The translations under genes were made by a program, and so were the position numbers. From contig JBFLWF010000003.1 in assembly GCA_040758355.1 (NCBI GenBank), positions 32,001 to 96,000 of the forward strand: DNA of 64,000 nt, in the 5' to 3' direction. Source of the DNA: Nitrospirota bacterium (GTDB lineage: Bacteria; Nitrospirota; Thermodesulfovibrionia; Thermodesulfovibrionales; Dissulfurispiraceae). The notes beneath the pieces were generated by a model. The model worked only from the letters and a program-made list of their open reading frames with translations, was not told where the DNA came from and searched no databases. This document shows, piece by piece, positions 31,570 through 61,461 of the stretch (positions are counted from its first letter, which is position 1; the number at the start of each line of letters is the position of its first letter).

Positions 31570-31691
31570 GCGAGGGGCAACCGTTTTGCTGTACTGAAAA
31601 GGACTTGAATGAGGCTGAATGGCGAAGGCAGGGGACTAAGCAACAGAACTATGTGTAAAATACTAAGGCAAAATGCACTAACATGCGCATT

Positions 31692-43603: not shown

Positions 43604-43683
43604 ACCATCCTCCCATTTCAAATTCGAAATCCTAATACCTAAATCCTAAACAAACTCAAAACCCTGCTTTTAGAATTTAGAAT

Positions 43684-44028: not shown

Positions 44029-44055
44029 ATCGCTATGACTTTTTTGCATAACGTT
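44029..44055. promoter_or_regulatory. Putative ModE-type operator
   Basis: ATCGCTATG-N9-CATAACGTT immediately before the ModE-like start codon. Confidence 0.55.
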
Positions 44056-44067
44056 GATAATAAAAAA

Positions 44068-44364: not shown

Positions 44365-44959
44365 TGGTGTAATATCCTCCGTCTGCACATGGTTTGCACA
44401 AAATCCTTCCATCCCTGTAAACCTCCCTTATGTCCTGAACATATTCTCCGCAACTGTCGCACCTAATTCTCCTTAACGGTCTGCCGGGCATATCCTCGGG
44501 CTTTATGTCCACTTTCACATCCATTATGTCAAAGAGATCATTATCAGACATTATCTTGTATGCCTCTAACTGAGCTTTATATTTATCCTCAATCTCCGGG
44601 AAGTACTCTTTTGCCTTATCCCTTGCATCTTCTTTTGCAATAACCCTTACAGCACTTCCTGTCTTGAGGTTCACAAAGGTAGCAGCCATCTTGCCGTAAT
44701 CCATGAACTTCATCGTCCTGTGACCAAGGCTACACCCTGTTACAGACTGCACCGCATCTGTTGCGCACCTGTCCATCTCCACAAATACAATCAGGCTCTT
44801 TCTGTCCTTGCCTTTAGGCTCTTCTATTCCAATCTTGGATAATCCGAGAATAGACATCTTGACGCCAAGAACCTGTCCGGGACAGAGATGTCCGTGAATC
44901 TTTACAGATTCTGCAAGGAGTCTTTCGAAGTCCGAATCAATTAATTTTGAGCTGCCCAT
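44339..44959 (-). CDS. FmdE-family protein with C-terminal Zn finger
   Basis: HGHLCPGQVLG, CATDAVQSVTGCSLG, CDSCGE..LCKPCA. Confidence 0.92.
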   Translation of the reverse strand: MGSSKLIDSDFERLLAESVKIHGHLCPGQVLGVKMSILGLSKIGIEEPKGKDRKSLIVFVEMDRCATDAVQSVTGCSLGHRTMKFMDYGKMAATFVNLKTGSAVRVIAKEDARDKAKEYFPEIEDKYKAQLEAYKIMSDNDLFDIMDVKVDIKPEDMPGRPLRRIRCDSCGEYVQDIREVYRDGRILCKPCADGGYYTIEDESYGK

Positions 44960-45431: not shown

Positions 45432-46409
45432 CTAAGCAAATTCAAAAGGATTATGCCCTCTAAAACCCCTTTTAATTAAAATTGCATTATTCATACAAAA
45501 CCCCTCGCACAATCCGCATCCGCTGCATAAAGAGGTATTGAAAGACAATTCCCTGCTATCGCCTGCGGTTTCTATTTTTAACGCGCCTGTAGGACACATG
45601 CCTATGCAAGCAAAGCAGTTGTTGCAGTCTTCGTTTATATCGACGGTATAATAATAATTTTCAAGCAAAGCGGTGTTGTCTCCCTTTTTATAAGATATAA
45701 CCCTGTTCAGCAAATCCCTCTTGATAGGAATTTTTTTTGCTGAATATGACTGTGGCGCCATAACTTCGTCGTTCTCGAAAAACTCGGAGGCATGAAGAAA
45801 TGTCAGATTTTTAATCGCCTTGAAAAATCCCCTGCGGTCGAATGAGATGTCCTGATAATACAACTCTGATCCATCTTCCACAAGGCATATCTTCTCAAAT
45901 ACATTCAAAGAGGTATTTTTAGTAATACTTCCGATTCTTTTCTTCAGGGTATCGACAATGAACCCGTTCCTGCAATCGGCGCATCCCGTAAGATTAATCT
46001 GGAGCCGTCCCTCCAGGAAAACCGAAAGGGCAATAATATGATCTTCCGACAGAAAACCAAAGCAAAGAGTTCTTTCATGTGCCTTTAAATCCGCCCTCGC
46101 ATTGCAGCCGAGTACGGGGGCCGGAACGGAATTGCCAGCTTTTTTTAATCTCGCGATAAGGGAATAAAAATCCGTAGCTTTTGCATCAAAGCATCCCGAA
46201 GGACATACAGATACGCATAACATGCATTCGGAACATGCATCTCTCTTGATGTCAACACCTTCGTCTATTCTGACAGCATTGAACCTGCAATGCTTAATAC
46301 ACTCGCTGCAGGTGCTTTTGTTAAAACGCATCCTCAAACACCTCGATTGGTCTACGGCAATCGCATCTGCTGTGTTCGACATAGTGTCGATTATTTTGCC
46401 CTGCAGCAT
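45432..46409 (-). CDS. Polyferredoxin-like 4Fe-4S protein (arr accessory)
   Basis: Four CxxCxxCxxxC-type motifs at the N- and C-termini, internal RRGFF. Confidence 0.85.
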   Translation of the reverse strand: MLQGKIIDTMSNTADAIAVDQSRCLRMRFNKSTCSECIKHCRFNAVRIDEGVDIKRDACSECMLCVSVCPSGCFDAKATDFYSLIARLKKAGNSVPAPVLGCNARADLKAHERTLCFGFLSEDHIIALSVFLEGRLQINLTGCADCRNGFIVDTLKKRIGSITKNTSLNVFEKICLVEDGSELYYQDISFDRRGFFKAIKNLTFLHASEFFENDEVMAPQSYSAKKIPIKRDLLNRVISYKKGDNTALLENYYYTVDINEDCNNCFACIGMCPTGALKIETAGDSRELSFNTSLCSGCGLCEGFCMNNAILIKRGFRGHNPFEFA

Positions 46410-47077
46410 TAATTTAAAACCCTCTGTGCCTTTTCGCTCATAATTTCATCAGGGATAACAGAGTTCATAATAAAGGCCGAAACACACTCGGCAAGTGCCA
46501 GGTAGAATTCATTGTCAGTGCCATTTTTTATTTTTTCGCAGAAATTATTTATCCATAGGCCGAGAAATGAATTTAGAAATTCCTGCTGCATCTTAATAAA
46601 TTTATGAGCGGTATCAATATCAGATTTTTCCAGTGCCTCTGTCTCTTTAAATACAAGATAATACATAAATTCAAGTTCAACTGCTATATGGTCAGGCAGT
46701 TCCTTAAAATCATCATTTATTGCAAGTCCTGCCTCCCGATAGAGTTCCATTGTCTTAATCGTGGAATCCCCCATAACCTTTCTTTCCTTATCAAGATAAA
46801 TCGAGCCATATGGCGGTGCGATCAGCTCATTTGGTCCTACAAAAAGTTTTGCATAATCAACTAACAGTTCTTCATTTGTATATGTCGCAATTGCTTCTTC
46901 CATCTTTTCTGCAAATACAGAGGCAGAAGAACAGACTCTTTTTAATCCCTCTGCAAGGTTTCTCAGGAGATATTCCTGCACAAAAAGAGATCTATCAGGC
47001 TGATAAAAACATGCAGATAAAAGCCTGTAACAGTCTCCTCTTATTTTTTCATTTAATATCAATTCATCGATGTTCAC
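46409..47077 (-). CDS. arrD: TorD/DmsD-family chaperone (ArrD)
   Basis: YAKLFVGP..APPYGSIY, ELPDHIAVELEFM. GTG start after GAGG. Confidence 0.88.
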   Translation of the reverse strand: MNIDELILNEKIRGDCYRLLSACFYQPDRSLFVQEYLLRNLAEGLKRVCSSASVFAEKMEEAIATYTNEELLVDYAKLFVGPNELIAPPYGSIYLDKERKVMGDSTIKTMELYREAGLAINDDFKELPDHIAVELEFMYYLVFKETEALEKSDIDTAHKFIKMQQEFLNSFLGLWINNFCEKIKNGTDNEFYLALAECVSAFIMNSVIPDEIMSEKAQRVLN

Positions 47078-47112
47078 TTTCACCTCATTTGCTTGGAGTA
47101 AAAAAATTGGTG

Positions 47113-47198
47113 TGCGGGAATGGAGTAATGGAGTGATGGAGTAATGATTTTTTATACCCAACACTCCAATACTCCAACACTCCAATTCTTTACTCCGT
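47113..47198. repeat. Inverted octamer arrays between arrB and arrD
   Basis: (ATGGAGTR)n ... (CAAYACTC)n. Confidence 0.8.
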
Positions 47199-47205
47199 AG
47201 AAGTC

Positions 47206-48003
47206 TTACGCCTTCTTGGCCTCGCCCTTAAAGCTTTTTATATAATATACATTGGGCTGCGTGCCCTTTTCTCCAGGCTTTAAAAGCTCGCCCTTGTTGT
47301 TCTTAAGCTGCACAGCCTTGTGGGCTTTCAGAGCCTTGCTCGGCTCGCTGTTGGGGTCCGAAAGGTCGCCGAATATACGGGCTTTCGCAGGGCAAGATGC
47401 CACACAGTAAGGCTGCTCGCCGTTAAGAACGCGGTGCTCGCAGAACATGCACTTTTCAACTTTGCCTTTCTCTCTGACGCTCGCATAGTCCGAATGCTTA
47501 TACATTGTGCGATGCGGAGGCATGTCACCAGCCTTCTTTGAGACATCAGCGCCCGATGAAGTACAACCGGGTATAACCTCTTTTGTGTCTTTATAAAAAG
47601 GATGGACTTCATCGGTAAAGTCATTAAAACTTATAACGCTGTACTGCACGCCTGCCTTATCAACATCTTCTGAACTATAGGGACATGCCTGCTGGCACCG
47701 ACGGCATCCGATGCACCTCTCCATATTGTGGATTGTCATGCCGTTTTCGTGTTTATGCATCGCCTTTGGAGTTACAGGACATGCCTTAACGCAAGGAGCA
47801 TCTGAGCAGTGGTTGCAGAGAACAGGCATAGGAGTGAACTTCACATCCGGATACTTGCCCTCTGTTTTCATAAAGAAATCGGCCCAGTTGAATCTCTGCC
47901 CCTTCGCCCTGTCCTGAGTGTTGTTCTCTGTCTTGCATGCGATTGCACACGCACCGCAGCCGACACACTTCTGTAAGTCTATAACCATTCCGTATTTAGG
48001 CAT
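47206..48003 (-). CDS. arrB: Respiratory arsenate reductase FeS subunit
   Basis: YGMVIDLQKCVGCGACAIACKTEN, LCNHCSDAPCVKACP, CIGCRRCQQACPY, EKCMFC..PYCVASCP. Confidence 0.9.
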   Translation of the reverse strand: MPKYGMVIDLQKCVGCGACAIACKTENNTQDRAKGQRFNWADFFMKTEGKYPDVKFTPMPVLCNHCSDAPCVKACPVTPKAMHKHENGMTIHNMERCIGCRRCQQACPYSSEDVDKAGVQYSVISFNDFTDEVHPFYKDTKEVIPGCTSSGADVSKKAGDMPPHRTMYKHSDYASVREKGKVEKCMFCEHRVLNGEQPYCVASCPAKARIFGDLSDPNSEPSKALKAHKAVQLKNNKGELLKPGEKGTQPNVYYIKSFKGEAKKA

Positions 48004-48022
48004 CTATCTTTACCTCCTTTCC

Positions 48023-50596
48023 TTAAACCTTCTCTATTCTTACCGCGGTAAAGCCGCCGTTTCTGCAGTTGCTGCCGGTCATACGCTCAACATCAAAAGG
48101 CATGAGGTCATTGTTATTGCCGCCTCTCGGTGTCTTGTTAAATTCTTTGGTAGCAACCTTTCCGTATGCCCAGTGTCCCTGACCATAGCACTTTGAAACA
48201 GTGCCGGGCCTTACACCTTCCCAGAGCTTTGCCTTGACAGTAATGCTGCCTGTTACAGAAGTGAGCTTCACCATGTCTCCTGTCTTGATCCCGAGTTTTT
48301 TGCCGTCCTCGGGATTTATCCTCACGATATCGTCCCAGCTCTCATCGCCAACATCTACCCTCTTGAACTCCTGGAACCATGTGGTGTTCTGGCTTCTTCC
48401 TTCCCTGTTGAGCCTTGACTTGAAGTCAACGAGGATAAACGGATATTTGACAGGGTCGCCCCATATCTTTGGCGACTCATAATGAGGCACAAATACCTCT
48501 TCGCCTTTTGCCGTATACTGGGCTGCCTCTACAATATCATCAATCGTTGTCTTATACTTTTCGGCATGGGCTTTAAGACCCGTCTTCAGTCCTTCACTGT
48601 AAAACTCAAATTTCTTAGTAAGTGTCGGGAAGCCCTTTTCCCAGAGTCCTTTGTATTTATAAGACTCTGAATTATAGATTCCCTTTGCCTTAAAGTCTTC
48701 CCAGCCGTTAAGCTGAGGGCTACCCTTAAGAGGCTCTTTTGGTTTCCATACAGGCATGCTGATGGTTTTTGCTACAATCTCTGCAAAATCCTCAGGCCCG
48801 GTAGGAGTCTTGCCGGTTTCAGGGTCTTTAAATGAATTGAAGTAATTAATCATATTCGGGAAACCCTTTTCGCCAAGCTTTTGAGCGAGCATGTACATTA
48901 TCTCTGTCTCGTCAGCTTTCTCTTCCCAGAGCCTTCCGACAACAGGCTGCTGAATGGAGATATGTGTATGACCATTGCCTTTGTTGTCAATTATCGAGAG
49001 CTTCTGTGTAGCATGATGCGCTGCAGGCAATACTATATCGGCATACATCGCAGCCTCGGCAGGGTTGGTGCCGATATGGACATAAAAGACCTTTTCCATT
49101 GCCCTGTCCCATCTGTCAGCGCCTGTGCATGAGAAGTTGAAGTTTGCCCAATAGCTTATGCAGACTTTGATATCATAAGGGTCTGCATTCAATATGCCTG
49201 TTGCTGTATTATTTGTAATAACAGCAGTGCCTGGTTTGAAATTTCCCTTTTTGTCAGCGTCGGGATTAAGCGAAGGGAACTGCTTGTATCCCCTCTGGTC
49301 GATCTTTTTTTCCTTGCCGTATTTCTTTGCCATGTCATCGAGGAAAGGATCAATGGAGGGCAGTTTTCCTGATGGCGACTTTGGATGATGGGTCAATACG
49401 CCGCCCTCAACATCTATGCAGCCGAGAAGGCCGTTAATAGCATATATTGCCTGAGATGCTGCAGCACCTCTCGGGCTCATAACAGGACCGGGGCCCATCC
49501 ATATCGCACACTGCGGAGCAGCAGCAGCCATTGTCTTTGCAACTTTTACAATCTGAGACTTGGAAATGCCGCAGATTTTTTCAGCCCATTCAGGTGTCCT
49601 GTCCTTGAGTTCAATGTTCCACCATTTTACAAGACCATGTGTGTGCTTTTCTGCAAATGCAGCCTCGTCAACTGTCTTTCCTGTCTTGAACTGGTTCTTG
49701 CCGTCTTTAAAGTCTCCAACGAACTCCTTGTTCCACAAGCCTTCTGTCAGGAGAACATGGGCTATTGCCAGTGCAAGTGCGCCGTCTTCACCTGGCTTTA
49801 CAGGCACCCACATATGAGATTTTGCCCCTATAGCGCTCAATCTCGGGTCAACAGTAATAAGCGTACCTCTATCAATAAGGTCGCCAATTTTATTTATTGT
49901 GTTCGGAACGTTCCTGTTTGAGCTTAACGGGTCGCATCCCCATACTACAAGACATTTCATATTCTGAAGGTTATAATCCCTGTATCCCCAGTAGCCTTCT
50001 GTTGCAAAAGGACCAAATTTCTCGGCCTCTGCACAGATAGCACTGTGTGAGATCGAATTGGGTGAGCCTATTATCTTTGGTAATGTTCCGTAAGCAAGAG
50101 GATATGTCTTTGGTGAATATCTTCCCCTGATGAAGAGAAATTTATGCGGCTCGTTGTTTTTTCTGAGTTCGAGGAGCTTATCAGCAACTATACCCAATGC
50201 CTCATCCCATGAAATGGGAACGAACTTTGGATCTTCTCCTCTGCCCTTTTTGGGGTTTGTCCTTTTCATAGGAACCTTCACCCTGTCTGGGTCGTAAAGC
50301 TCCTGAAGCATAAGGTGTCCTCTCGGACAGCAGTAACCGCCGTTTACCTTTGAAAGCTGGTTTCCGCGAACTTTTACAGCCCTTCCGTTCTGAACAAAAA
50401 ACTCGCAAGGGCACCACTGTGTACAGCCCTGACATGTGGATGGAACCCATTTGCCGGGATCCGTGCTGCCGCTCACCTTTTCGCCTGCAAGCGGCTTGGG
50501 CACCTGTGCAAAGGCATTAAGGGATGGTCCTGTTAATGCCATTGCTGCGCCGGCTGCCACGCCTGCCTTAAGAAAGTCTCTTCTCTTAATCTCCAT
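48023..50596 (-). CDS. arrA: Respiratory arsenate reductase catalytic Mo-bisPGD subunit
   Basis: Tat signal KRRDFLK, TCQGCTQWC, RGRYS and SHSAICAEAEK catalytic-site motifs, KSRLNREGR. Confidence 0.93.
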   Translation of the reverse strand: MEIKRRDFLKAGVAAGAAMALTGPSLNAFAQVPKPLAGEKVSGSTDPGKWVPSTCQGCTQWCPCEFFVQNGRAVKVRGNQLSKVNGGYCCPRGHLMLQELYDPDRVKVPMKRTNPKKGRGEDPKFVPISWDEALGIVADKLLELRKNNEPHKFLFIRGRYSPKTYPLAYGTLPKIIGSPNSISHSAICAEAEKFGPFATEGYWGYRDYNLQNMKCLVVWGCDPLSSNRNVPNTINKIGDLIDRGTLITVDPRLSAIGAKSHMWVPVKPGEDGALALAIAHVLLTEGLWNKEFVGDFKDGKNQFKTGKTVDEAAFAEKHTHGLVKWWNIELKDRTPEWAEKICGISKSQIVKVAKTMAAAAPQCAIWMGPGPVMSPRGAAASQAIYAINGLLGCIDVEGGVLTHHPKSPSGKLPSIDPFLDDMAKKYGKEKKIDQRGYKQFPSLNPDADKKGNFKPGTAVITNNTATGILNADPYDIKVCISYWANFNFSCTGADRWDRAMEKVFYVHIGTNPAEAAMYADIVLPAAHHATQKLSIIDNKGNGHTHISIQQPVVGRLWEEKADETEIMYMLAQKLGEKGFPNMINYFNSFKDPETGKTPTGPEDFAEIVAKTISMPVWKPKEPLKGSPQLNGWEDFKAKGIYNSESYKYKGLWEKGFPTLTKKFEFYSEGLKTGLKAHAEKYKTTIDDIVEAAQYTAKGEEVFVPHYESPKIWGDPVKYPFILVDFKSRLNREGRSQNTTWFQEFKRVDVGDESWDDIVRINPEDGKKLGIKTGDMVKLTSVTGSITVKAKLWEGVRPGTVSKCYGQGHWAYGKVATKEFNKTPRGGNNNDLMPFDVERMTGSNCRNGGFTAVRIEKV

Positions 50597-50744
50597 CTTT
50601 ACCTCCTTTTAGGTATTTAAGATTGAAAAGAAATCAACTGCAAAATTTGCGAAATCCCCTCCTTCTCACCCCCTTCTGTCATGCCTGTTCTAAAGATTAT
50701 CCCACCTCATTTTGTTTGTCAAATGATAATTCATAAAAATGTTT

Positions 50745-50760
50745 ATCAACTTTTATGCCA
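50745..50760 (-). promoter_or_regulatory. sigma54 promoter of arr operon (variant -12)
   Basis: TGGCATAAAAGTTGAT: perfect -24, and -12 TTGA instead of TTGC. Confidence 0.65.
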
Positions 50761-50801
50761 TATGTAACATGTTGAAAACAAAAGGTTTATTCTTATAGAT
50801 G

Positions 50802-50909
50802 TGTTACTAAAAAGAAACAGATATAAATTAGAAATCACGTATCTGCTTCTATTGTCAATAAAAACAAGGTCTTTTCATCCAAAAATCGGAGTGTTACGAT
50901 TTAGTAGCG
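50802..50909. promoter_or_regulatory. Two putative activator sites (TGTTAC-N6-GTAACA-like)
   Basis: TGTTACTAAAAAGAAACA (50802-50819) and TGTTACGATTTAGTAGCG (50892-50909). Confidence 0.7.
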
Positions 50910-50960
50910 ATGACATATTCTTTATGCTCTCAGTTCAAGAAAGGGTTTGTGTATAAAATT

Positions 50961-52700
50961 TCATATTAGCGCCTCCGGTCTGTTTGCAGCAACAACAATG
51001 TTTCTGCCTGTCTCCTTTGCAACATAAAGGGCGTCATCTGCTGCCCGTATAATCTTTTCCGGGGAGTCTCCATCTTCAGGATAACACGCTGCACCAATGC
51101 TTACCGTTATCTTCCCTGACGGCTGTGATTCTGCCCTTGGAAATTTGTTTTTCGCGATACCGCACCTTATCCTTTCGGCTATGGATATTGCCTCATCCTT
51201 TCCTGTTTCAGGAAGCAACATGATGAATTCTTCTCCTCCGTACCTGCTTACTGTGTCTGTTTCCCTGATATGCTCGTTCAACATATCAGCCAGCATCTTC
51301 AGCAATATGTCTCCTTGTGGATGTCCGTTTGTATCGTTGTAATGCTTGAAGTGGTCAATATCAATCATAATCAGGCCGAAATGTTTGACGTACCTCTGTG
51401 CCCTGTGTATTTCGGATTCCAGAAGTTTCAGAAATGCCCTCCGGTTTTTCAGTCCTGTAAGCCCATCTGTCTCCGAAAGCTCAAGGGTCTTTTCGTAGAG
51501 CTTTGCATTTGATACGGCAAGGCTCGCTGCATCGAGCAGACGCATGCATGCATCGAGGTCGGGTCTTGGCTCAAGCTTAGACCGCCTCGTAACATCCATA
51601 ACAAATATTCCGGCAGGTGTAAACATATCGCAGTTCATGCATGCCTTTAATTTTTCCAGAGTGTCTGTCAGAATCCTGCCGTGGCAGTAAGTACTTGAAG
51701 TGTACCAGCATCTCCTGTCATCAGAACCATGGGCAGGACATGACGAGTCCGGAGGACAGTGAAAATATTCATAACATTTTGTTGTAAATGCTGCCCTGAT
51801 AGGCAGGACTGTTATCTCCTTTGCGTCTTTAAGAAGAATCTTTATTACAACATCTTCATATTCGGAGCTTATGACAGATGTATCGAGCCACCTTGCCTCG
51901 CAACTTAAAAATGTATCTGTAAATATATTTTTGCCCGAAAGCGGGATAGCAATATCAGATTTATTATGAACCAGAGACACTTTGTTTTTATCCAGACGGA
52001 AGCACTCAATATTAGAACTGCCGGAAAATGCTGATAGTTCTTCTTTTGCAATCTCTATGACATCGTCCATTACAATAGAAGAACGCAGTTTCTCCGAAAG
52101 GAGGTAAAGACGTCTTATCTCATCCTGTTTTTTATACAGCCTGTCCGAGAGGTATGCGACAAAATAGGCGGTGAGAATCAATGTGCTTGCAAAAACACCT
52201 CCATATGCCGCTATCACGGAAAGGTCCGCAAAAAGCACAGGCTCATTCTTGAGTATGGCAAAATGGGGCAGGATGCCTACGTGTTTGAGCCACATAACCG
52301 CTGCAGGAAGGACTATTGCAGCAACAGCAAACCTGAAAGTCCATTTTATCGGCAGGATGATGCCGCTTATTACAATGTGGAAGATGTAATAATATAAAAA
52401 CGGGCTGTCGCATCCTCCTGAAAAATAAACAGCAGCAGTAAGAACAATGAAGTCAAGGCTTATCTGTGCAATTGCGTTCTTTATGAGGTCTTCGGATGGA
52501 GATTTCAGCCTCTGCTGAAAATATGCATTGTACACAGTAGTAAAGCCCAGTATCAGATATACTGGTATCAATGGAAAAGTCAGACCTGCTATCTCCCTCA
52601 CCACGTGAGTTATGACAAGCACGCCGACGCAGCCTGCCCATCTGAGCCTTACAAGCCAGAGAAGCTTATCTTTCATTTCTGACTGTTCGATGGTAATCAT
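50961..52700 (-). CDS. Membrane diguanylate cyclase with Cys-rich (two-CW-like) insert
   Basis: Several N-terminal TMs, CYEYFHC..CPA..RCW..TYCHG..CMNCD, SRYGGEEF. Confidence 0.9.
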   Translation of the reverse strand: MITIEQSEMKDKLLWLVRLRWAGCVGVLVITHVVREIAGLTFPLIPVYLILGFTTVYNAYFQQRLKSPSEDLIKNAIAQISLDFIVLTAAVYFSGGCDSPFLYYYIFHIVISGIILPIKWTFRFAVAAIVLPAAVMWLKHVGILPHFAILKNEPVLFADLSVIAAYGGVFASTLILTAYFVAYLSDRLYKKQDEIRRLYLLSEKLRSSIVMDDVIEIAKEELSAFSGSSNIECFRLDKNKVSLVHNKSDIAIPLSGKNIFTDTFLSCEARWLDTSVISSEYEDVVIKILLKDAKEITVLPIRAAFTTKCYEYFHCPPDSSCPAHGSDDRRCWYTSSTYCHGRILTDTLEKLKACMNCDMFTPAGIFVMDVTRRSKLEPRPDLDACMRLLDAASLAVSNAKLYEKTLELSETDGLTGLKNRRAFLKLLESEIHRAQRYVKHFGLIMIDIDHFKHYNDTNGHPQGDILLKMLADMLNEHIRETDTVSRYGGEEFIMLLPETGKDEAISIAERIRCGIAKNKFPRAESQPSGKITVSIGAACYPEDGDSPEKIIRAADDALYVAKETGRNIVVAANRPEALI

Positions 52701-52779
52701 TGTGTTCTCTCTTTAATAATATCAAGACAGCTTGATGCCCTCTCCGGGATTTCCCTTTTCACGGCCATAGCGCCATATT

Positions 52780-54384
52780 TTATTCTGTTTCCCTTGTCTT
52801 AAACCCTGCCGTGGAGTTTCTTAATTCCTCTGCTATCTTTGCTAATACATCGACCTCCTGCATTACATCATCTGCCATCTTCTCCATGTCTTTTGCAATG
52901 GCAGATGTCTTTTCTATGTTTCCTGCCACCTCTTCCGATGCAGCCGACTGCTCATCCACTGCAGTTGCTATTTGTGTTATCTGGTCGCGGACTTTCTGAA
53001 CAGACTCCACAATGGTATCCAGAACATTCTTCAAGTTCTTCACATGACCCACTGCCTTAGTTATACCCTTTGTGGAGGAAGACATAGACTTAGCCGTCTG
53101 CTCGGATTCAGCCTGCACTGCTCCTATCTTTTCCGAAATCTCTGTTGTTGCCTTTATTGTCCTCTCAGCTAATTTTCTTACCTCATCAGCAACAACCGCA
53201 AATCCTCTTCCCTGCTCACCTGCCCTTGCTGCCTCGATTGCTGCATTTAAGGCAAGGAGATTTGTCTGGTCTGCTATGTCTTTGATTACGGTTACTATTC
53301 CTCCAATCTCAACCACCCTGCTGTTCAGCCTTCCTACCATCCTTGAAAGCTCTGCCGTAGAAGTATTGACTTCATTTATCGTTTCAACGGTTGTGTCTGT
53401 TATCTGTTTGCCGCTTTCTGCTATTTCCATTGCCTCTGACGATGTATCCGATGCCACAGATGCATTTTTCGCTATATCGGTGATTGTCTGGCTCATCTCT
53501 TCTGCTGCTGTTGCTATCTGGTGGGCCTGGGAGGATTGATTTTTTGCTCCTTCCGATGTCTTTTCTGACCTCGCCCCCAATACATCCACTGTGGACACCA
53601 CTTTGTTTGCCGATGCGAGTATGCCGTTTATCATGCTGTTGAAGGACTGAATCATTCTGTTCATGTCGTGCGCGAGGATGCCTATTTCATCTTTACTGTG
53701 ATAATCTATTGTGGCTCTCAAATCTCCTTCTGACAACTGCCTGACCTTTTCTATCAGATGAGTCAGTGGCCTGAGGGCAATTGTAACGAGAAAGAATATG
53801 GCTCCGGTTACTGACAGTATGCCCATTAATCCGAGTCCGAAATAGAGGTTGCGGGATGATTTAATTGTGGCAAAAGAACGTGTCAGCGGTATCTTTATGC
53901 TTATGGCCCCGAGAACAGTCCCCTCTTTTACATTGTGGCAGGATAAGCAGTTTTTACCCATGTAATTAGATTTTGCGATATAGGGGGAAATGCTGCGGAG
54001 GTATTCTCCTTCAAGGAAAACCTTCTCTGTGCCCTTATCTAAAACCTCCTTTTCCACGGCATCTTTTGGGTATTCCTCGGCTTTACCCCTTCCATAATCT
54101 TTATCGAGGTTTTCCGACCTTATTATACGGACATCTGCGATATTGGACATCTGCTCCAGAAACTGACCCTTCGATTCCTTGATTGTTCCGTTCAGCATCA
54201 TGGTGGTAAGGGCATTCAGAACTGTATCTCTGTATCCTGTGAGGGTCGTGTTCTTTGCCTCATCGATGACAATGCTCTTTGTCCTGCCTGTCGTTACAAA
54301 GATTGTGACTATAATACCTATAGCGACCATCACTGTAATCGGCACCACTACCTTGTTTTTCAGAGATACATCTTTTAGATTCAT
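52780..54384 (-). CDS. Methyl-accepting chemotaxis protein with periplasmic c-heme motif
   Basis: CLSCH in periplasmic domain, [42 protein letters not shown]. Confidence 0.94.
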
Positions 54385-54488
54385 ATTCTCCCCTCCGTTA
54401 ACTAAATTACGCAAATATTACTATTGCGTATAACAGATTGTAAAGGCTTTGAAGTACACCTGCTGTCATGACCTTGCGTAATTTGAGT

Positions 54489-55201
54489 TTAATCACTACC
54501 TTTGCCCGCCGGGCATATGATGGCCACATCAGTGCCCTTCCCTTTCTTGCTCTCTATTGTTATTCTGCCACCGTGCCTTTCCACTATACCCCTTGCTATG
54601 GAAAGACCCAGACCTGTGCTGGTTTTGTGCTGGGCGCTGAAAAACGGGTCGAAGACCTTATGTATCTCTTCCCCCGAAATCCCCTTTCCTGTGTCTGTAA
54701 AGACGATTCGCAGCAGGGCTTTTTCATCACCGCTCTCTTATATTCACCGGTGTGCGCAGCGATGCTTTTTGTTATCTCATCATTGATCCTTGAATAACTC
54801 GATTCCAACTCTGTCAAACGTCTCCGCCCTTCGCCCAGCCTTTTTTCAAGGAATAAAGAGTTAATGGAGATCAGCTTTGAGTAATACCCCATATACTCGT
54901 GTTTTATTTTATCGGCATCTTCAGGATGTGTTTTTTTTAGATTGTTTAAGTTATCAAAAACCCTGAGGGAATGCCCATCGGATTGTATGACATATTTATG
55001 ATCAAGTGTTAAAATGCCGCTCTGGATGGCCCTATTGAACTCTTTGATATCGCTGTCTATCCGGTTCAGCAACTGTATTGTTTCAATTATCTGCTTCAAC
55101 TGATAATTGTGAAAATAAAAAATCCAGCCAAAAGATGAAAAAACAAAAACGGCAATTAACAATATGGGCAGGATGATCTTGTTTTTTTCCGAAAGATCCA
55201 T
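54489..55201 (-). pseudogene. Internally deleted sensor histidine kinase
   Basis: N-terminal TM/periplasmic part fused out of frame near 54735 to an HATPase tail (FTDTGKGI..VFDPFFS..STGLGLSIARGIVERHGGRITIES..). HAMP and HisKA are absent. Confidence 0.8.
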
Positions 55202-55205
55202 GCCT

Positions 55206-55691
55206 TTACCGACCTCTCCTGACAGGAATAAAGCCCTGAGCCTTCACTATCTCCTGTCCCTCCGTAATCAAAAAGAGGTCTAAGTAATTCTTTATCTTTT
55301 TATTCTCTTTCATGTATACGAGGTTCAACTCTCTCCTGATGGGATATGTACCGTTAAGCACATTCTCTTTTGTTGCTGCAACTCCGTTTAAGGCAAGAAT
55401 TTTTATAGGCATTCCTTTTTCGATCAGGGACATAGCCGTACCTACCGATACATACCCTATGGCTCCCGGCGCACCACCTACCAGCGTTACTCCCTCGAGA
55501 TTAGATCCTACTTCGTATGTTTCTTTTGCAATATAGCCGTTAATTCCCTTCCGGGTACTGCAAGAATGTTCTAACCCTGTATAGTTTTCAAATAGCTCCA
55601 GCGTTGATCTTCCGGGCTGCTTCGACACCAGACTGATCGGCTGATCCCACGTGGTTATTAATATAACGGGAAAGAATATCTTCTGAGCCAT
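55206..55691 (-). pseudogene. N-terminally truncated PstS-like binding protein
   Basis: Only the C-terminal half is present (GAIGYVSVG..LNGVAATKENVLNGTYPIRRELNL..EGQEIV). No signal peptide. Confidence 0.7.
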
Positions 55692-55713
55692 GTCCCCTGT
55701 TTCTTATCTTTAT

Positions 55714-56718
55714 TTAAGATCGTATAAATCGTTGAGGGTCTTTGTATTCGTGGCATTTCACGCAATCCTTCTTTGCCTGAGCCTCTGTAACCCTCCATGA
55801 ATGGGGCTTGTGGCAGTCAACACACTTCATGCTCATGCCCCTTATATGCAGCTCGTGCTTGCCTACATAGAGCTGATCGCTATGACATCGTTTAAGACAG
55901 TCACCCCAATCGGGCCGCACCTTTTTATGAGGCTTATGACACTCATAGCAGTAGAACTGCATGGGTGCATCTTTAGGCACATTTATCTTTATTGCCTTTT
56001 TTATAAGCTCCGGTGAAGGCTGGAAATATTTGGTATCTATCGTCCCTTCCTCGATCAGCTTTTTCCTTATTGATTCTTCTCCATGGCAGAACAGACACTT
56101 CTCCCTGTCGGGCCTCAAATGGGGAGTGCGGTCGGTATGGCAGTTGATGCAGGCAAGTTTTTCCATGCCTGTACCGTGAACCTCTCTGCCGGTATGGCAA
56201 TTAACACAGAATCTCTCCTCGGGAAGGAAATTATGAACCACGTAGCCGTGGCATTTTGCACACTCTATCTGTTCCATAAATACATGCTTTGCATGATACC
56301 TTGAACGGTTCACTACAGGTGCATCTGGATATCTTTTGTCCTTTTCCCAGTGGCATTGGATGCATATCTTCCATGCTACGATAATCTGTCCGTGTCTTGG
56401 TTCAACCATTTTCTGACCCATGAATACAAACCTGTACAACTGCACCACCTGTTCCTTCTTCGTTGAATGATGACACTCGTGGCATGTAACTTCTTTGTGC
56501 ACGCTCTTTGCCCATGCCTCGTTTGCATAATCATGGACGTGGCACAGGGCGCAGGCATTCGGGTCATGCTCAAAATAGTCGTTGATCTTATACCCTGTAA
56601 AACCGACGCCGATAACAAAAAGTAAAACAAAAAGGGAAATAATTATCCTTGCCTTGCGGGATAGCTTCTCTGAATACCATACAACAAGCCTGTCAAACAA
56701 TTTAAATGGATTGAGCAC
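55714..56718 (-). CDS. Membrane-anchored multiheme cytochrome c (NapC/NirT-like N-terminus)
   Basis: One N-terminal TM, 10 CxxCH plus one CxxxCH (CLKRCH), ..PNACALCH..WAKSVHKEVTCHECH. Confidence 0.92.
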   Translation of the reverse strand: MLNPFKLFDRLVVWYSEKLSRKARIIISLFVLLFVIGVGFTGYKINDYFEHDPNACALCHVHDYANEAWAKSVHKEVTCHECHHSTKKEQVVQLYRFVFMGQKMVEPRHGQIIVAWKICIQCHWEKDKRYPDAPVVNRSRYHAKHVFMEQIECAKCHGYVVHNFLPEERFCVNCHTGREVHGTGMEKLACINCHTDRTPHLRPDREKCLFCHGEESIRKKLIEEGTIDTKYFQPSPELIKKAIKINVPKDAPMQFYCYECHKPHKKVRPDWGDCLKRCHSDQLYVGKHELHIRGMSMKCVDCHKPHSWRVTEAQAKKDCVKCHEYKDPQRFIRS

Positions 56719-56738
56719 TTTTCACCTTATTTAATTTT

Positions 56739-56754
56739 AGCAATTTATATGCCA
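56739..56754 (-). promoter_or_regulatory. sigma54 -24/-12 promoter of cytochrome gene
   Basis: TGGCATATAAATTGCT, consensus match. Confidence 0.88.
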
Positions 56755-56795
56755 TTTATAAATAGATGAATTAAAAGGGTTTTAAATCAAGGGGA

Positions 56796-56905
56796 GATTA
56801 CGAAAAAGAAACAATAAAGTGTGTGATTTTGTTGTCTGTCTTTGTGTTTTCCTTATAAAAATCGTCTTTCTGGCAGGAGGCGAGGTTTGTTACTTTTTTG
56901 TAACA
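56796..56905. promoter_or_regulatory. Two putative activator sites (TGTTAC-N6-GTAACA)
   Basis: GATTACGAAAAAGAAACA (56796-56813) and TGTTACTTTTTTGTAACA with perfect arms (56888-56905). Confidence 0.75.
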
Positions 56906-56957
56906 ACTATTCAGTCATGTTCGTATTCTGCATGCTCATGTTTTGAACATGGTTATC

Positions 56958-58295
56958 TCACTCTATTGCATAGGCATTCATCTTCTCCCAGAGCGTCTTT
57001 CTGCTGATTCCGAGCATTTCCGCAGCCCGGGTTTTGTTGCCCTTTGTGGTTTTTAATATTCTGATTATATGCTCTTTTTCTGCCTCTGCTGCCACATCGG
57101 AAAGGGAAAAATGTCTTTTGTCATCACTTTTTTCGAATATAAAAGAAGGAAGGTCATCTTTCTGAATTATATCGGTAGTGGCAAGGGTTGCGCATCTCTC
57201 CACAATATTTTCGAGCTCCCTTACATTCCCTGGATAGTCATACCTGAGAAGGGCGTTCATTGCATCAACCGAGAAGCGGATATTTCTCGAAAGCTTGTTT
57301 GCGCATTTGCTTAAAAAGAAATCGATAAGATTAGGCATATCTTCCTTGCGCTCCCTTAAGGGCGGAAGTGTTATAGGTATCACATTGAGGCGGTAATAAA
57401 GGTCTTCCCTGAAATTGCCTTTCTTTACCTCATCTTCGAGATTCCTGTTTGTTGCTGCAATTATCCTTACATCCACATTCAAGGTATCGGTGCCGCCTAC
57501 CCTCTCAAATGTCCTTTCCTGAATCACTCTTAAAAGTTTTGACTGGGTTGATAGGGGCAGATTGCCTATCTCGTCAAGGAAGATGGTGCCGCCATTGGCA
57601 AGTTCAAACCTCCCCGCTTTCCTTTTTATCGCACCGGTGAACGCACCCTTTTCATGGCCGAACATCTCGCTCTCTATCAGACCCTCGGGCAGTGCTGCAC
57701 AGTTTACCTTTATCAGGGGTTTGTCCTTCCGCTTGCTCTGATAATGAATTGTGGTCGCTATAAGTTCCTTTCCTGTACCGCTTTCTCCGAGTATTAAGAC
57801 TGTCGAATCAGACCCGGCAACCTTTTCGACCAATGAGAAGACCTTCTTCATCTCCTCACTTTCGCCGATTATATTAGGGAAACAGTAGCATCTGCTCAGG
57901 TCTTTCTTGAGCCTTATATTTTCATCCTTAAGCCTCTTTACATCCAGGGCCCTTTCTATCAGCAAAAGGAATTCGTCCAGAGAAAACGGTTTTGTTATGT
58001 AGTCGAATGCACCGAGTTTCATCGCATCTACAGCATCTTTTATTGTGCCAAAGGCAGTCATCACAATTACCTGCGCCTCATTTGTCCTTGTAATTTGCCG
58101 TAGTATGTCGATACCGTCAATATCAGGGAGCCTTACATCGGTAACCAGCACATCGAATGAATTATCTCTCAGGAAATTTAGGGCCTCCATGCCTGTTTCA
58201 AAAGATATGACCTCATATCCTGCCGACTTAAGGGCGTCATCGAGAGTAACCCTCATCAATTTTTCGTCTTCTATTAATATAACCGTTTCATTCAT
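56958..58295 (-). CDS. sigma54-dependent response regulator (ArrR/AioR-like)
   Basis: REC, GESGTGKE, EMFGHEKGAFTGA, HTH ending GISRKTLWEK as in AioR/ArxR-type activators. Confidence 0.93.
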   Translation of the reverse strand: MNETVILIEDEKLMRVTLDDALKSAGYEVISFETGMEALNFLRDNSFDVLVTDVRLPDIDGIDILRQITRTNEAQVIVMTAFGTIKDAVDAMKLGAFDYITKPFSLDEFLLLIERALDVKRLKDENIRLKKDLSRCYCFPNIIGESEEMKKVFSLVEKVAGSDSTVLILGESGTGKELIATTIHYQSKRKDKPLIKVNCAALPEGLIESEMFGHEKGAFTGAIKRKAGRFELANGGTIFLDEIGNLPLSTQSKLLRVIQERTFERVGGTDTLNVDVRIIAATNRNLEDEVKKGNFREDLYYRLNVIPITLPPLRERKEDMPNLIDFFLSKCANKLSRNIRFSVDAMNALLRYDYPGNVRELENIVERCATLATTDIIQKDDLPSFIFEKSDDKRHFSLSDVAAEAEKEHIIRILKTTKGNKTRAAEMLGISRKTLWEKMNAYAIE

Positions 58296-59764
58296 ATGCT
58301 TGGGTCTACTGGAAAGGTCAGTATAAACTTACTGCCCTTCCCAACCTCGCTTTCAACGGAGATTTCTCCATTATAATTTCTGACTATGTCATAACTCAAC
58401 CACAAGCCGAGCCCCGTTCCTTCTCCAGGAGGTTTCGTTGTAAAAAACGGGTCGAATATCTTGCCTAAATTTTCTTGAGAAATGCCCTCGCCTGTATCTA
58501 TAACTTCCACTTTTATTTTCGAATCCTCCTTATATCCCCTGACAGCCAAATATCCCTCATACTTCATGGCATGGATTGCATTTATAAAGAGATTTAAAAT
58601 CACCTGATGAAAATCGTGGGGGTCAAAGATAATAAAAAGTCCGTCCTCCACCTCGTTGGCAAATTGGATATTGCCTTTCTTGAGTTTATATCCCACAAAT
58701 GTGTAGACGCCGTTTATAGAATCTTTGATATTAATGCTGATGGGCGTGTGGTCTCCTTTCCTGGACATCCACAAAAGCTTGCTTACGGTATTTTCTATCC
58801 GGTCAAGCCCCTCTTTTATCAGATCCAGATATTTTCCCCTTAATTCAGGATTATTGCCGTTGAGCTTCAAGATCTGCACGCAGTTAAATACTCCTCCGAG
58901 AGGATTGTTTATCTCATGGGCAACGCCTGCGGCAAGTATGCCTACGGATGCAAGCTTTTCTGATTGTACCAGCTTTTCATGGGTTTTTCTGAGTTCTTCG
59001 TTTGCCTGCTTTATCCTCTCTATCATGTTATTAAACCTCTCGCCGAGGACGGCAAGCTCATCATGTCCCTTCACCTCAACTTTGACATCGAGATAGTCGC
59101 CCCCTGTTTTTTCCATGGTAGCGGCAAGCTGTGTTATGGGGCTTATAAAGCGGTTGCTCAAGAGAAGTATGACGCCGAACCCTGCAATAATAAGGAACAA
59201 TGTGAGAATGATAATCTTTTTAATGGAGGCAACAATCTCCTTTTCGACCTTTTCGAGGGATATTGCGAACTTCAATGTTCCCCAACGCTTTTTCCCTATA
59301 GAAAGCGGGACCCCGAAATCGAGGGCATTATGTCCGCTGTGCGAAAAACTGTGTATTACGGCATCATTTGCTTGTAATGCCTTTACAGTTGAGGGGTCTG
59401 AATATATCTTTCCGTACTCCGCAATATTGTTGTGAGATATTATCTTTCCCTCCTCATCCAGAATAGCTATGTAAATCAAATCCACATCGCGCCTGTTGAA
59501 TATCTCCATTATGTAATTATCGAGCAAGCCGCCTTCCTCCACCAATCCAAGCCTTTCATAAATGAGGTCGTTGATTATCGGTATGGCGAGGGTCTCTCCA
59601 AGCAATCGTCCCTGCCTTTCGACCTCGGTGTATAGTATATTCTTTCCTCTCTGGACAGCCATATAACCTATTATCCCCATGAGAAGTATAATGGCTACTG
59701 TCGTAATCAAAATGAATTTAGACCTCAGACTTAATCTTGAGAAAAAAGCAGTAATCGTATTCAT
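58292..59764 (-). CDS. Sensor histidine kinase (ArrS/AioS-like)
   Basis: Two TMs, HAMP, AGVAHEINNPLGG, FDPFFTTKPPGEGTGLGL. Confidence 0.93.
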   Translation of the reverse strand: MNTITAFFSRLSLRSKFILITTVAIILLMGIIGYMAVQRGKNILYTEVERQGRLLGETLAIPIINDLIYERLGLVEEGGLLDNYIMEIFNRRDVDLIYIAILDEEGKIISHNNIAEYGKIYSDPSTVKALQANDAVIHSFSHSGHNALDFGVPLSIGKKRWGTLKFAISLEKVEKEIVASIKKIIILTLFLIIAGFGVILLLSNRFISPITQLAATMEKTGGDYLDVKVEVKGHDELAVLGERFNNMIERIKQANEELRKTHEKLVQSEKLASVGILAAGVAHEINNPLGGVFNCVQILKLNGNNPELRGKYLDLIKEGLDRIENTVSKLLWMSRKGDHTPISINIKDSINGVYTFVGYKLKKGNIQFANEVEDGLFIIFDPHDFHQVILNLFINAIHAMKYEGYLAVRGYKEDSKIKVEVIDTGEGISQENLGKIFDPFFTTKPPGEGTGLGLWLSYDIVRNYNGEISVESEVGKGSKFILTFPVDPSI

Positions 59765-61461
59765 AACCTTATCTTTGGATGGCAGCCCTTACCGCATGTC
59801 TGGGGCACTGCATTAATCTTCGCCCGTATATCAGCATAATCTTTATCCGACGCCTCCATGAAACCATTTCTGAAGTCATCATCGAGCCTTTTTAATATCT
59901 TCTGATGGTTTGAGCTGTTGGGATCCAGATCAAGCAATGCCTTTTTTATATTCTCTATCATGGCAAAAGGCGTACCCGGGCCTACGACAAGGGGGCCTGT
60001 TGGGATGTCAGGAGATTCGGCTATTACCTCGATGCCGAGTTTCATATATTTCCTTGCCACCGAATCGCGCACAGCACCCGCATCGTACTGCCCCTTCAAA
60101 ACCGCCTTGACAACCGAGTCATGATAATCGAAATTAGCATAACCGCCCAGCTCATTAAGGTGAATTCCTGAGTTTGCAAGGAGATAGCGGGGCATTAAAT
60201 TTCCTGATGTTGATTTGGAAGCCGAAAAAGCCATGATCTTTCCTTTTAGTCCATTGGTATCGTTTACAGATGAATCCCTTCTCTTTATTATTACGCTCTT
60301 ATAGGAGGCATTACCGTCGATTCCCCTCGGTTTAAGTATGCATATGGCCCCGTATTTTGCGCGTGCTTCGAGGTATGTCAGAGGGCCGAGAAGCGCAACC
60401 TCAACTTCTCCGCGGCCAAGGGCCTCCACAGTGTCTTCATAATTTTTCTTTATAACAAGCTCATATGCGTAGGGCGTCTTTTCGGAGAGGTAGTCAAGGA
60501 GCGGCTGGTATTTTTCGTATAATATTCTCGGGTTGTCCCTCGGTATTACGCCGAAAGAAACCATTTTTTTACCATTCGTCTTTTTAGCCACCATAACATC
60601 ATTTTTAATAGAGCGCTCCATTTCCCTTATTGAATCATAAGCACTGTCCGATATCTGCACAAAACCGTCTATCATCATGTCGTTAAGTATTGCGGCCCCC
60701 TTTGCTGTTTTATGCATGTTCAAGAAGGCATCCCTTATTTTTTTCTTGAGATTCTCATCGATGTCTTTAGTTACTACAACAGGAGGGATTCCATACGGCG
60801 GCGATCTTTTTATGACCTTAGTCTGTTTTGCATAGGGCGAGCCCTTCTTTACCATATATTCATAGACAATGCTTTCGACAGCAGCGCCGTCTACAACCTT
60901 TTTAGCTACCAGCTCCACTGATTTATTATGGCTGTAGCTGTACATAACCCTCTTAAAAAATTTCTCGGGGGTAAATCCCATTGTCTTCAACAGATGTGTA
61001 GGATACAGTTTGCCTGTGTTGGATTTGGGATCGGTAAAGGCGAAAAACTTACCTTTCAACTCGGGAAAGGACTGAACCGGACTATCCTTATGGACAATTA
61101 TGTATGAATGATATGATGCCTTCCCGTTTACGCTTGGGGCAACGAGGATCTCGACGCCGAATTTCTCGCGGTTTTTAACATACGGCGCAGAACAAATAAA
61201 TGCAACTTTAACTTCCCCTCTTTCGAGCATTGTGTCCATCTCGTCATATGTCCTTCTGTGAACCATCTGTACAGGCTGTTTTATCTGCTCGCCTATGTAA
61301 TCGATTATTTCCTGATAATACTTGACAGCGTCGACAGGCGTAATCATCGATGATACGCCGATTTTGATTGTATTGTCCTGCTGCGATAAAGAGTCGTGAG
61401 GGAGGCAAAAGACCGAAACAAAAACAAACAAAAGAAGTAAAATTAAATTGAAGCGTCTCAT
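59761..61461 (-). CDS. Tandem two-domain PhnD/AioX-like periplasmic binding protein
   Basis: Signal peptide. Domain 1: AFICSAPY, FAFTDPKSNTG, YSHNKSV. Domain 2: ALLGPLTY, AFSASKSTSG, YHDSVV. C-terminal TCGKGCH. Confidence 0.88.
   Translation of the reverse strand: MRRFNLILLLLFVFVSVFCLPHDSLSQQDNTIKIGVSSMITPVDAVKYYQEIIDYIGEQIKQPVQMVHRRTYDEMDTMLERGEVKVAFICSAPYVKNREKFGVEILVAPSVNGKASYHSYIIVHKDSPVQSFPELKGKFFAFTDPKSNTGKLYPTHLLKTMGFTPEKFFKRVMYSYSHNKSVELVAKKVVDGAAVESIVYEYMVKKGSPYAKQTKVIKRSPPYGIPPVVVTKDIDENLKKKIRDAFLNMHKTAKGAAILNDMMIDGFVQISDSAYDSIREMERSIKNDVMVAKKTNGKKMVSFGVIPRDNPRILYEKYQPLLDYLSEKTPYAYELVIKKNYEDTVEALGRGEVEVALLGPLTYLEARAKYGAICILKPRGIDGNASYKSVIIKRRDSSVNDTNGLKGKIMAFSASKSTSGNLMPRYLLANSGIHLNELGGYANFDYHDSVVKAVLKGQYDAGAVRDSVARKYMKLGIEVIAESPDIPTGPLVVGPGTPFAMIENIKKALLDLDPNSSNHQKILKRLDDDFRNGFMEASDKDYADIRAKINAVPQTCGKGCHPKIRL

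Follow-up and report, generated by a model that had tools for sequence, protein, structure and literature searches.

Known Three-Component Systems and the Locus Under Study

AioXSR, described in Rhizobium sp. NT-26, the Burkholderiales and Agrobacterium tumefaciens GW4, is a three-component system made of a binding protein (X), a kinase (S) and a sigma54 activator (R). The available part of one article reports two putative AioR sites of the form GTTNC-N6-GNAAC in the Burkholderiales, tied to a sigma54 promoter (PMC3673622), and that of another describes the binding of AioR at a second target, mcp, by electrophoretic mobility shift assay and footprinting, at the site GTTCGGATTTCCGAAC (PMC5335332). 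A trio of the same composition is encoded in a 64,000-nucleotide stretch of the genome of a Nitrospirota bacterium of the family Dissulfurispiraceae (assembly GCA_040758355.1, contig JBFLWF010000003.1, positions 32,001 to 96,000), hereafter the window; the genome itself (2.77 Mb) is called G000. Next to this trio are two sigma54 promoters about 6 kb apart, one directly after the R gene and ahead of a multiheme cytochrome gene (promoter 1), the other ahead of arrA, which encodes an ArrA-like molybdenum subunit (promoter 2), and each is preceded by two 18-bp palindromes. The original prediction was that these palindromes are bound by the adjacent ArrR/AioR-like activator, that they tie the cytochrome to arsenate respiration and that they give a candidate operator for this regulator. 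Comparison with related genomes indicates that the four palindromes are very probably enhancer sites bound by R.

The operator is a genuine and conserved regulatory element that belongs to a class already described, the AioR-type box, and AioR is itself known to control a second target. The kind of site is already published and fits the pattern GTTNC-N6-GNAAC, so that the operator is not of a new kind. As in the AioR box, two sites lie upstream of a sigma54 promoter, and they have the same length and symmetry as the mcp site. Unlike the AioR box, the sites have here the form TGTT(A/T)C-N6-GTAACA, the geometry is fixed, a site resembling that of the integration host factor (IHF) is present, and GT or GA is found at -13/-12 in 19 of 37 promoters; unlike in AioXSR, the targets are reductase-type enzymes and X has two domains. 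What is new is the exact geometry with the IHF-like site, the frequent non-canonical -12, the recurrence of loci with two such promoters and the swapping of target enzymes while sensor and operator stay the same. In the literature searched, in which subscription journals were mostly outside coverage, no paper was found to define the operator of a sigma54-type ArrR; the locus provides an operator and a promoter layout, precise enough to test, for an arsenate-reductase activator of the sigma54 type.

The closest solved relative of the N-terminal domain of X is ArrX from the ArrXSR system of Chrysiogenes arsenatis, which binds arsenate (PMC5908839, available part). In the same part of that source, C. 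arsenatis ArrR is described as CitB-like and devoid of an AAA+ domain; its putative site is FixJ-like, and a sigma54 promoter was reportedly not detected upstream of arrAB. The locus in G000 differs on these points, and its R is AtoC-type, as reported there for Epsilonproteobacteria. The source also gives, for the ArxXSR system of Alkalilimnicola ehrlichii, a putative ArxR site, gtaacaattcaagc, which includes the half-site GTAACA. The half-sites TGTTAC and GTAACA are used as well by CbrB of Pseudomonas putida, a sigma54 activator assisted by IHF, and the half-site alone can therefore not identify a regulator; unlike R, CbrB recognizes three subsites and responds to carbon limitation (PMC6296734, available part).

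Palindromes and Promoters of the Window

The elements and genes are collected in Table 1, where mismatches are counted against TGTTAC-N6-GTAACA. The proximal palindrome is separated from the T of TGGCA by 41 bases at both promoters (42 in the count of the original prediction), the distal sites lie 90 bp (arrA) and 92 bp (cytochrome) beyond the proximal ones, and both proximal sites end in AAAAAGAAACA. The positions of both promoters and of the four palindromes, their spacings and this common end had all been predicted correctly, as had the lack of the motif upstream of the propeller gene (no site with three mismatches or fewer in the 600 bp before 31472).

Table 1. Features of the window, in the numbering of the 64,000-nucleotide stretch.
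Feature	Position	Strand	Remarks
sigma54 -24/-12 element of arrA	50745-50760	-	TGGCATAAAAGTTGAT, non-canonical GA at -13/-12
sigma54 -24/-12 element of cytochrome promoter, after activator gene R	56739-56754	-	TGGCATATAAATTGCT, canonical
arrA proximal palindrome, candidate enhancer	50802-50819		TGTTACTAAAAAGAAACA, 1 mismatch, fits GTTNC-N6-GNAAC, 20.6 bits
arrA distal palindrome, candidate enhancer	50892-50909		TGTTACGATTTAGTAGCG, 2 mismatches, no exact GTTNC-N6-GNAAC fit, 17.0 bits
Cytochrome-promoter proximal palindrome, candidate enhancer	56796-56813		GATTACGAAAAAGAAACA, degenerate, 3 mismatches, 11.5 bits
Cytochrome-promoter distal palindrome, candidate enhancer	56888-56905		TGTTACTTTTTTGTAACA, 0 mismatches, 22.7 bits
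IHF-like site of arrA promoter	50765-50777	-	TTTCAACATGTTA, ends 4 bp upstream of -24 element
IHF-like site of cytochrome promoter	56759-56771	-	ATTCATCTATTTA, 2 mismatches, position as at arrA
X, periplasmic sensor, two binding-protein domains	59761-61461	-	ArrX 6x6b, E-value 1.6e-48
S, Cache-HAMP histidine kinase	58292-59764	-	
R, receiver-AAA+-Fis helix-turn-helix sigma54 activator	56958-58295	-	Recognition helix ISRKTLWEKM
Membrane-anchored multiheme cytochrome	55714-56718	-	10 CxxCH + 1 CxxxCH, NrfH-like N-terminal part
PstS-like binding-protein gene remnant	55206-55691	-	Lacks first 140 of the 289 residues in G002
Histidine kinase gene remnant	54492-55201	-	G002 residues 159-344 missing, frame shifted
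Methyl-accepting chemoreceptor	52780-54414	-	One CxxCH in N-terminal part
Membrane diguanylate cyclase	50961-52700	-	
ArrA-like molybdenum subunit, twin-arginine signal	48023-50596	-	NF041714 best family; 6cz7, 932 bits
arrB-like iron-sulfur subunit	47206-48003	-	
TorD-type chaperone	46409-47185	-	
Ferredoxin-like gene	45432-46409	-	

The site at 56888 is the sole perfect palindrome in G000, which contains in addition 5 sites with one mismatch, 40 with two and 637 with three; in view of the last number, the site at 56796 alone would be meaningless. Of the 46 sites with at most two mismatches, five lie no more than 300 bp from a sigma54-like element, and three of these five are sites of the window. 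A composite profile (a site plus a sigma54 element at a gap of 38-43, trained on relatives with G000 left out) has two matches in 2.77 Mb, precisely the arrA and cytochrome promoters. The cores of the two promoters are only 59% identical, which speaks against a recent duplication of one of them, and the sites and spacings are nonetheless retained; non-orthologous cores are 49-61% identical.

Other descriptions of the motif were discarded. The GlnR box of actinobacteria consists of direct repeats, and such a reading is ruled out by the palindromic consensus of 51 sites. The arr-type sites are inverted, which speaks against a Pho box as the principal description.

Assuming standard sigma54 geometry, the arrA transcript is predicted to start near 50734 and that of the cytochrome gene near 56728, only 10 nt ahead of the start codon. 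About 95 bp of the leader found in a relative, G002, are absent at the G000 cytochrome promoter, hence the predicted leader of 10 nt. The 16 bases of TGGCATATAAATTGCT are identical at the promoter of the binding-protein gene in another relative, G003. A sigma70 scan (33 matches versus 35.0 by chance) and a terminator scan (17 versus 15.8) both stay at chance level; no terminator is listed on the - strand in the stretch from the cytochrome gene to the arrA promoter, a weak negative given the level of that scan, and no RNA holder is listed for 47200-57000.

Conservation of the Promoter Layout

An arrA search with an E-value threshold of 1e-100 matched 14 of 61 genomes, and the composite promoter is present in 10 of the 12 arr-type loci of relatives that were fetched. 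It is missing from G026, where arrA is present and no tandem-X match, R orthologue or motif pair was found, and from the distant G048. In G004, the pattern alone located a pair before an arrA start cut by the contig end, which the protein search had missed.

The sensor X was also searched, not via arrA, in 401 genomes of the phylum; 44 contain it, and 36 new ones were fetched. With eight of the fetched genomes excluded for short contigs, 38 have at least 350 bp after R, ten of which, including G000, had originally been picked through arrA. A palindrome followed 39-42 bp downstream by a sigma54 element lies within 600 bp of R in 27 of the 38, and 26 have the distal site too; the same layout occurs in one of 1140 dinucleotide shuffles. 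The 49 stretches, searched with a gap window of 38-43, contain 37 composite promoters, with a gap of 41 in 19, 40 in 10, 42 in 5 and 39 in 3. The site-to-site spacing is 85-94 bp in 34 of the 37, and 34 of the 37 proximal sites in the fetched stretches fit GTTNC-N6-GNAAC. The consensus of the distal site is TGTTAC-N6-GTAACA, while the proximal site is equally often TGTTTC with a T-rich spacer, which accounts for the common end of the two proximal sites in G000. The exact spacing and this end, which the original prediction took as a mark shared by arrA and the cytochrome, are thus present and do not make a special tie between the two genes, since the geometry is family-wide (gap of 39-42 in all 37).

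G000, G002, G003, G034 and G374 each have two composite promoters per locus. The layout accompanies the R gene in 27 of 38 genomes and the two-promoter loci recur in five, and for these reasons the palindromes are very probably sites of the adjacent activator, as was first proposed.

Several observations weigh against this assignment. Eleven of the 38 genomes have no composite promoter within 600 bp of R; among these, it is found further on in G022, G160, G236 and G314, G055 and G238 have palindrome pairs with no sigma54 match at the usual gap, G372 has such a pair further on, also with no sigma54 match at that gap, and G021 has no composite across 11 kb. G032 has a perfect palindrome pair before a broken arrA and a best R match of 49%. 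The genomes are kin, so that the counts overstate independence. In the window, the two sites other than those at 50802 and 56888 miss the exact published AioR pattern, and the cytochrome promoter combines a weak proximal site with the predicted 10-nt leader. Finally, G000 encodes another activator, at C1:8441, whose helix is similar and next to which lies a similar palindrome.

IHF-Like Site and the -13/-12 Positions

The IHF-like site and the GA at -13/-12 of the arrA promoter are additions to the original prediction. The IHF consensus is WATCAA-N4-TTR, and a match with at most one mismatch is found in 20 of 27 promoter gaps, compared to 9% of shuffles; in 21 of 27 promoters the match ends 4 bp ahead of the -24 element. 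The succession of distal site, proximal site, IHF site and sigma54 element is the standard layout of enhancer-dependent promoters. G000 has an ihfA gene above the family cut-off and an ihfB-like gene at 107.9 for a cut-off of 115.

The pair at -13/-12 is GC in 18 of the composite promoters, GT in 11 and GA in 8. GA is also found at the arrA promoters of G001, G002, G003, G022, G032 and G034, and four of the five two-promoter genomes have GC after R and GA at arrA. This difference may give the two promoters different activation thresholds.

The Sensor–Regulator System

X is a protein of 566 amino acids with two Phosphonate-bd domains. Its N-terminal domain, whose best solved relatives are ArrX and AioX, is ArrX-like and carries the cysteine; the C-terminal domain is PhnD/PtxB-like and has no cysteine. 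X does not have the single binding-protein domain of about 300 amino acids of the AioX/ArxX/ArrX sensors and was therefore filed as an ArrX-like fusion. The binding pocket of these sensors consists of a Cys with Tyr, Tyr, Ser, Ser, His and Asp (PMC5908839, available part). At the corresponding positions of X, assigned by motif from an alignment to ArrX and AioX, Cys is found in 43 of 43 proteins, Tyr in 43 and 42, Ser in 43, Thr or Ser in 43, His in 43 and Glu or Asp in 42. The cysteine is retained whichever enzyme is encoded, and the enzyme types are intermixed on a quick tree of X. The fusion, present in 44 of the 401 phylum genomes, closes with a conserved CxxxCH tail.

The named records with close homologues of X and R are from Nitrospirota. 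Among the 27 activator-like open reading frames listed in G000, the helix ISRKTLWEK is found in R only, and those at C1:8441 and C1:144875 come close. In the scan of species genomes described below, 10 of the 14 listed activators beside motif pairs have the helix I(S/A)RK(T/N/S)LW(E/Q)K.

From these elements the following mechanism can be proposed. An arsenic oxyanion, probably arsenate, would bind the Cys-bearing N-terminal domain of periplasmic X, which would activate the kinase S, and S would phosphorylate R. Dimers of R would then occupy the two palindromes, whose centres lie about 76 and 167 bp before the predicted start, IHF would introduce a bend at about -43 to -31, and the AAA+ domain of R would open the sigma54 complex. 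Promoter 2 would drive arrA, arrB and the chaperone gene. Promoter 1 would drive an accessory cassette, which in G003 consists of binding protein, kinase, chemoreceptor and cyclase genes and of which the cytochrome gene would be the first in G000 and G002.

The Cytochrome and the Accessory Cassette

The original prediction tied the cytochrome to arsenate respiration. Co-regulation with arrA is likely, a role of the cytochrome in arsenate respiration is no more than possible, and the tie is weaker than claimed: promoter 1 drives the cytochrome gene in only two of the five two-promoter genomes (G000 and G002), and the cytochrome family is also common in the absence of arr or of the motif (present in 45 of 61 genomes at an E-value of 1e-20). 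Close relatives of the cytochrome gene usually adjoin hemL-like, tetraheme and iron–sulfur genes, followed in G000 by an NrfD gene. The arr-linked cytochromes of G000 and G002 group in a separate clade (100/100) and are not a recent copy of a native gene. With 0.026 nonsynonymous and 0.236 synonymous substitutions per site (dN and dS; ratio of about 0.11), the cytochrome is, judging by these two genes, under purifying selection.

One reading, given about an even chance, is that the cytochrome gene was inserted behind an older signalling and chemotaxis promoter, and that the protein is co-induced and works in another route or in none in particular. Indeed, promoter 1 drives signalling genes in the three other genomes: the four-gene cassette in G003, receiver and kinase genes in G034, and genes for binding proteins, an HD-domain protein and a chemoreceptor in G374. 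The G000 promoter 1 is nearer to that of G003 (70%) than to that of G002 (65%), one target of AioR in Agrobacterium GW4 is an mcp gene (PMC5335332, available part), and no motif was found upstream at the 18 other best-matching loci of the cytochrome family or at the C11 copy in G000. Against this, the cytochrome gene has stayed intact and conserved, in contrast to the decay of the two signalling genes that follow it (the binding-protein and kinase genes, 54492-55691, are broken by deletions in G000 and intact in G002 and G003), and cytochromes of a similar kind are found repeatedly behind this operator in lineages that are unrelated.

The alternative, which is possible but tentative, is that the cytochrome has been taken up by an anchorless ArrAB as a partner for quinol oxidation or electron relay, replacing the missing ArrC in the manner of CymA. 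Like CymA and NrfH (NapC/NirT), the cytochrome has one membrane helix followed by c-type hemes, and it is a candidate quinol-oxidising partner and electron donor for ArrAB complexes without ArrC. No NrfD-type anchor gene is present in the arr operon, CymA is essential for arsenate respiration in strain ANA-3 (PMC2762525, available part), and the arr-linked clade has remained conserved while, in G000, its two neighbouring genes are broken. In L073, L082, L091 and G378, too, multihemes headed by a NapC/NirT domain are encoded in molybdoenzyme operons that lack an anchor and lie behind these palindromes. NrfH is the best match of the family profile in the PDB (E-value of 1.5e-8, residues 32-84) and the top fold match of the cytochrome model, but this match is weak (Z of 4.9, root-mean-square deviation of 5.2, 117 aligned) and the alignment-based model is middling, with a predicted local distance difference test score of 64.9 (38.3 for the single-sequence model). 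A Foldseek search with the model gave no match at an E-value of 0.001, a single-sequence search of the PDB nothing at 0.01, and PF03264 no match at 0.001.

Other features also separate the cytochrome from CymA and NrfH, which have 4 hemes compared to 10–11. The NapC/NirT family motif is CxxCHxM at heme 1; the cytochrome has CxxCHxH, and in its family the position is His in 19 of 22 proteins and Met in 3. The score against the NrfH model TIGR03153 is 38.1 bits for a cut-off of 134.2, and the protein, being below the NapC/NirT family models, was not placed in that family. Of the 22 proteins, 19 keep K87 and 18 keep K88, and the placement of these lysines on NrfH is not confident; the quinol-site lysine is K91 in CymA and K82 in NrfH (PMC2762525, available part). 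Among the 12 arr-type loci of relatives, only that of G002 has the cytochrome. Moreover, G000 has five NrfD-type genes, and the tetraheme/iron–sulfur/NrfD cluster beside its native, 77%-identical cytochrome copy could feed ArrB. On the genomic evidence, a passenger role thus seems somewhat more likely than a CymA-like one. The accessory cassette of G000, with its short leader and a proximal site (56796) that is the weakest of the four, may be decaying.

Target Enzymes of the Operator

In the 36 genomes picked through the sensor, the gene downstream encodes an ArrA-like enzyme in 5, a Ttr-like one in 10, a Psr-like one in 5 and another redox protein in 2; one has none and 13 have contigs that are too short. 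This tally was made by hand, and the 14 enzymes scanned are all under the family cut-offs. Automatic enzyme labels were set aside: a partial Ttr-like gene (G184) was mislabelled and several loci were missed.

When 185,579 species genomes were scanned for pairs of palindromes separated by 60-85 bp, 44 loci were returned, some of which are apparently DNA of relatives already counted. Twenty of the 44 have a catalytic gene of the dimethyl sulfoxide (DMSO) reductase family in the flank (by BLAST or hidden Markov model): 6 ArrA-like, 12 Ttr- or Psr-like and 2 NarG. Two further loci have open reading frames of 1239 amino acids in a NarG layout, and most of the others have no XSR or molybdoenzyme context and are possibly due to chance or repeats. 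Contrary to what had been supposed, the operator is therefore not specific to arr, since Ttr-like, Psr-like and nar operons carry the same motif.

A rather doubtful possibility is that XSR and the enhancer form a stable arsenic-responsive socket, behind which periplasmic reductases and their electron donors are swapped. The Ttr- and Psr-like enzymes found behind it in the phylum would be unrecognised arsenate or thioarsenate reductases, and NapC-headed multiheme cytochromes, that of G000 among them, would have replaced ArrC repeatedly. If so, such reductases would outnumber ArrA about three to one in the sample, and substrates could be predicted from a DNA signature for members of the DMSO family that are not separable by protein sequence. 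For environmental TtrA homologues, sequence is described as insufficient to predict the substrate (PMC11462812, available part). If the sensor is arsenic-specific, the operator flags Ttr- and Psr-like enzymes worth assaying, and surveys based on arrA undercount arsenic-mobilising bacteria.

It is unlikely that the sensor is broader, responding to thiosulfate, tetrathionate, selenate, thioarsenate or, via its second domain, phosphate, and that the operator serves oxyanion respiration in general. The predominance of Ttr- and Psr-like over ArrA-like enzymes in the sensor-picked genomes (15 to 5), the second, Cys-free domain of X and the presence of the palindrome ahead of nitrate reductase operons are in its favor. 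However, the N-terminal domain of X is closest to ArrX and AioX and its cysteine is invariant. Of the anions tested, ArrX bound arsenate and, weakly, phosphate but no other (PMC5908839, available part), and TtrA homologues with arsenate reductase activity have been reported (PMC11462812, available part).

Five scan loci (L065, L072, L078, L081 and L083) have perfect palindrome pairs before nitrate reductase or NarK genes, with sigma54 elements 76-100 bp away, which suggests that a related activator controls these nar operons. In L073, L082 and L091, from Alpha- and Gammaproteobacteria, a divergent XSR and the same palindrome pair accompany a decaheme headed by NapC/NirT, an iron–sulfur subunit and a Psr-like enzyme, with no anchor. 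In G127 (L146), the promoter drives the gene of a 982-amino-acid, 11-heme protein in place of a molybdoenzyme.

The arr Operon

The score of ArrA against NF041714 is 1053.5 bits, below the cut-off of 1600, and the protein was therefore filed as ArrA-like; this is nevertheless its best family by far. The alignment with the solved ArrA 6cz7 covers residues 45-857 (the next family has 155 bits) and makes visible RGRY and SHSxxC, which we take to be ArrA motifs.

The arrA gene of G000 is 92% identical to that of G003 and 63% to that of G002, whereas its X groups with G002 and its arrA promoter is 88% identical to that of G002. The dS of arrB relative to G002 is 3.18, compared to 0.24–0.70 for neighbouring genes. 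By this comparison, arrAB (47206-50596) appears to have been exchanged within the genus.

In G028, G037 and G050 a short open reading frame, tatA-like by eye, lies between the promoter and arrA. In G032 (L026) a frameshift splits arrA though both palindromes are perfect, and an R orthologue was not found. At 42470-44959 and in relatives, fmdE-like, modE-like and moeA-like genes trail the molybdoenzyme in many loci, whichever the enzyme.

Other Regulators of the Genome

It is improbable that another regulator than R binds the palindromes. The candidates would be the paralogous sigma54 activator at C1:8441 and PhoB, since TGTTACA is also a half-site of the PhoB box. G032, which has the pair and in which no orthologue of R was found, would fit such a regulator. 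In G000, a TGTTCC-N6-GGAACA site at C1:8394 (11.6 bits) lies beside the first activator, which has the helix ISRKVLWKK, and three direct TGTTACA-like repeats, 11 bp apart, are found between pstS-like and pstC-like genes at C8:95415. Both places nevertheless fail the composite test, and the arr-type sites are inverted, have a fixed phasing to the sigma54 element and track the R gene across the phylum. Binding by R is thus favored over both. A chance likeness in AT-rich DNA, or a recent functionless promoter copy, is hardly credible: three-mismatch sites are common (637), but the sites and spacings are retained in cores that are only 59% identical, one shuffle in 1140 reproduces the layout and the composite profile matches only these two promoters.

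Some neighbouring elements of G000 may be described here. At C1:8343-8440, directly after the activator with the similar helix, the TGTTCC-N6-GGAACA site is accompanied by a nearby second TGTTCC half-site and a sigma54 element, and this promoter drives a cluster of membrane protein and universal-stress-like genes. The repeats at C8:95415-95454, with a further pair upstream at C8:96715, are candidate Pho boxes, the gene names being assigned by eye. In the window, the region of the propeller gene (30261-35576) has its own sigma54-like element, a sigma54 activator, a kinase and a PstS-like binding protein; it thus encodes a second three-part sensor system, with another recognition helix and no palindrome.

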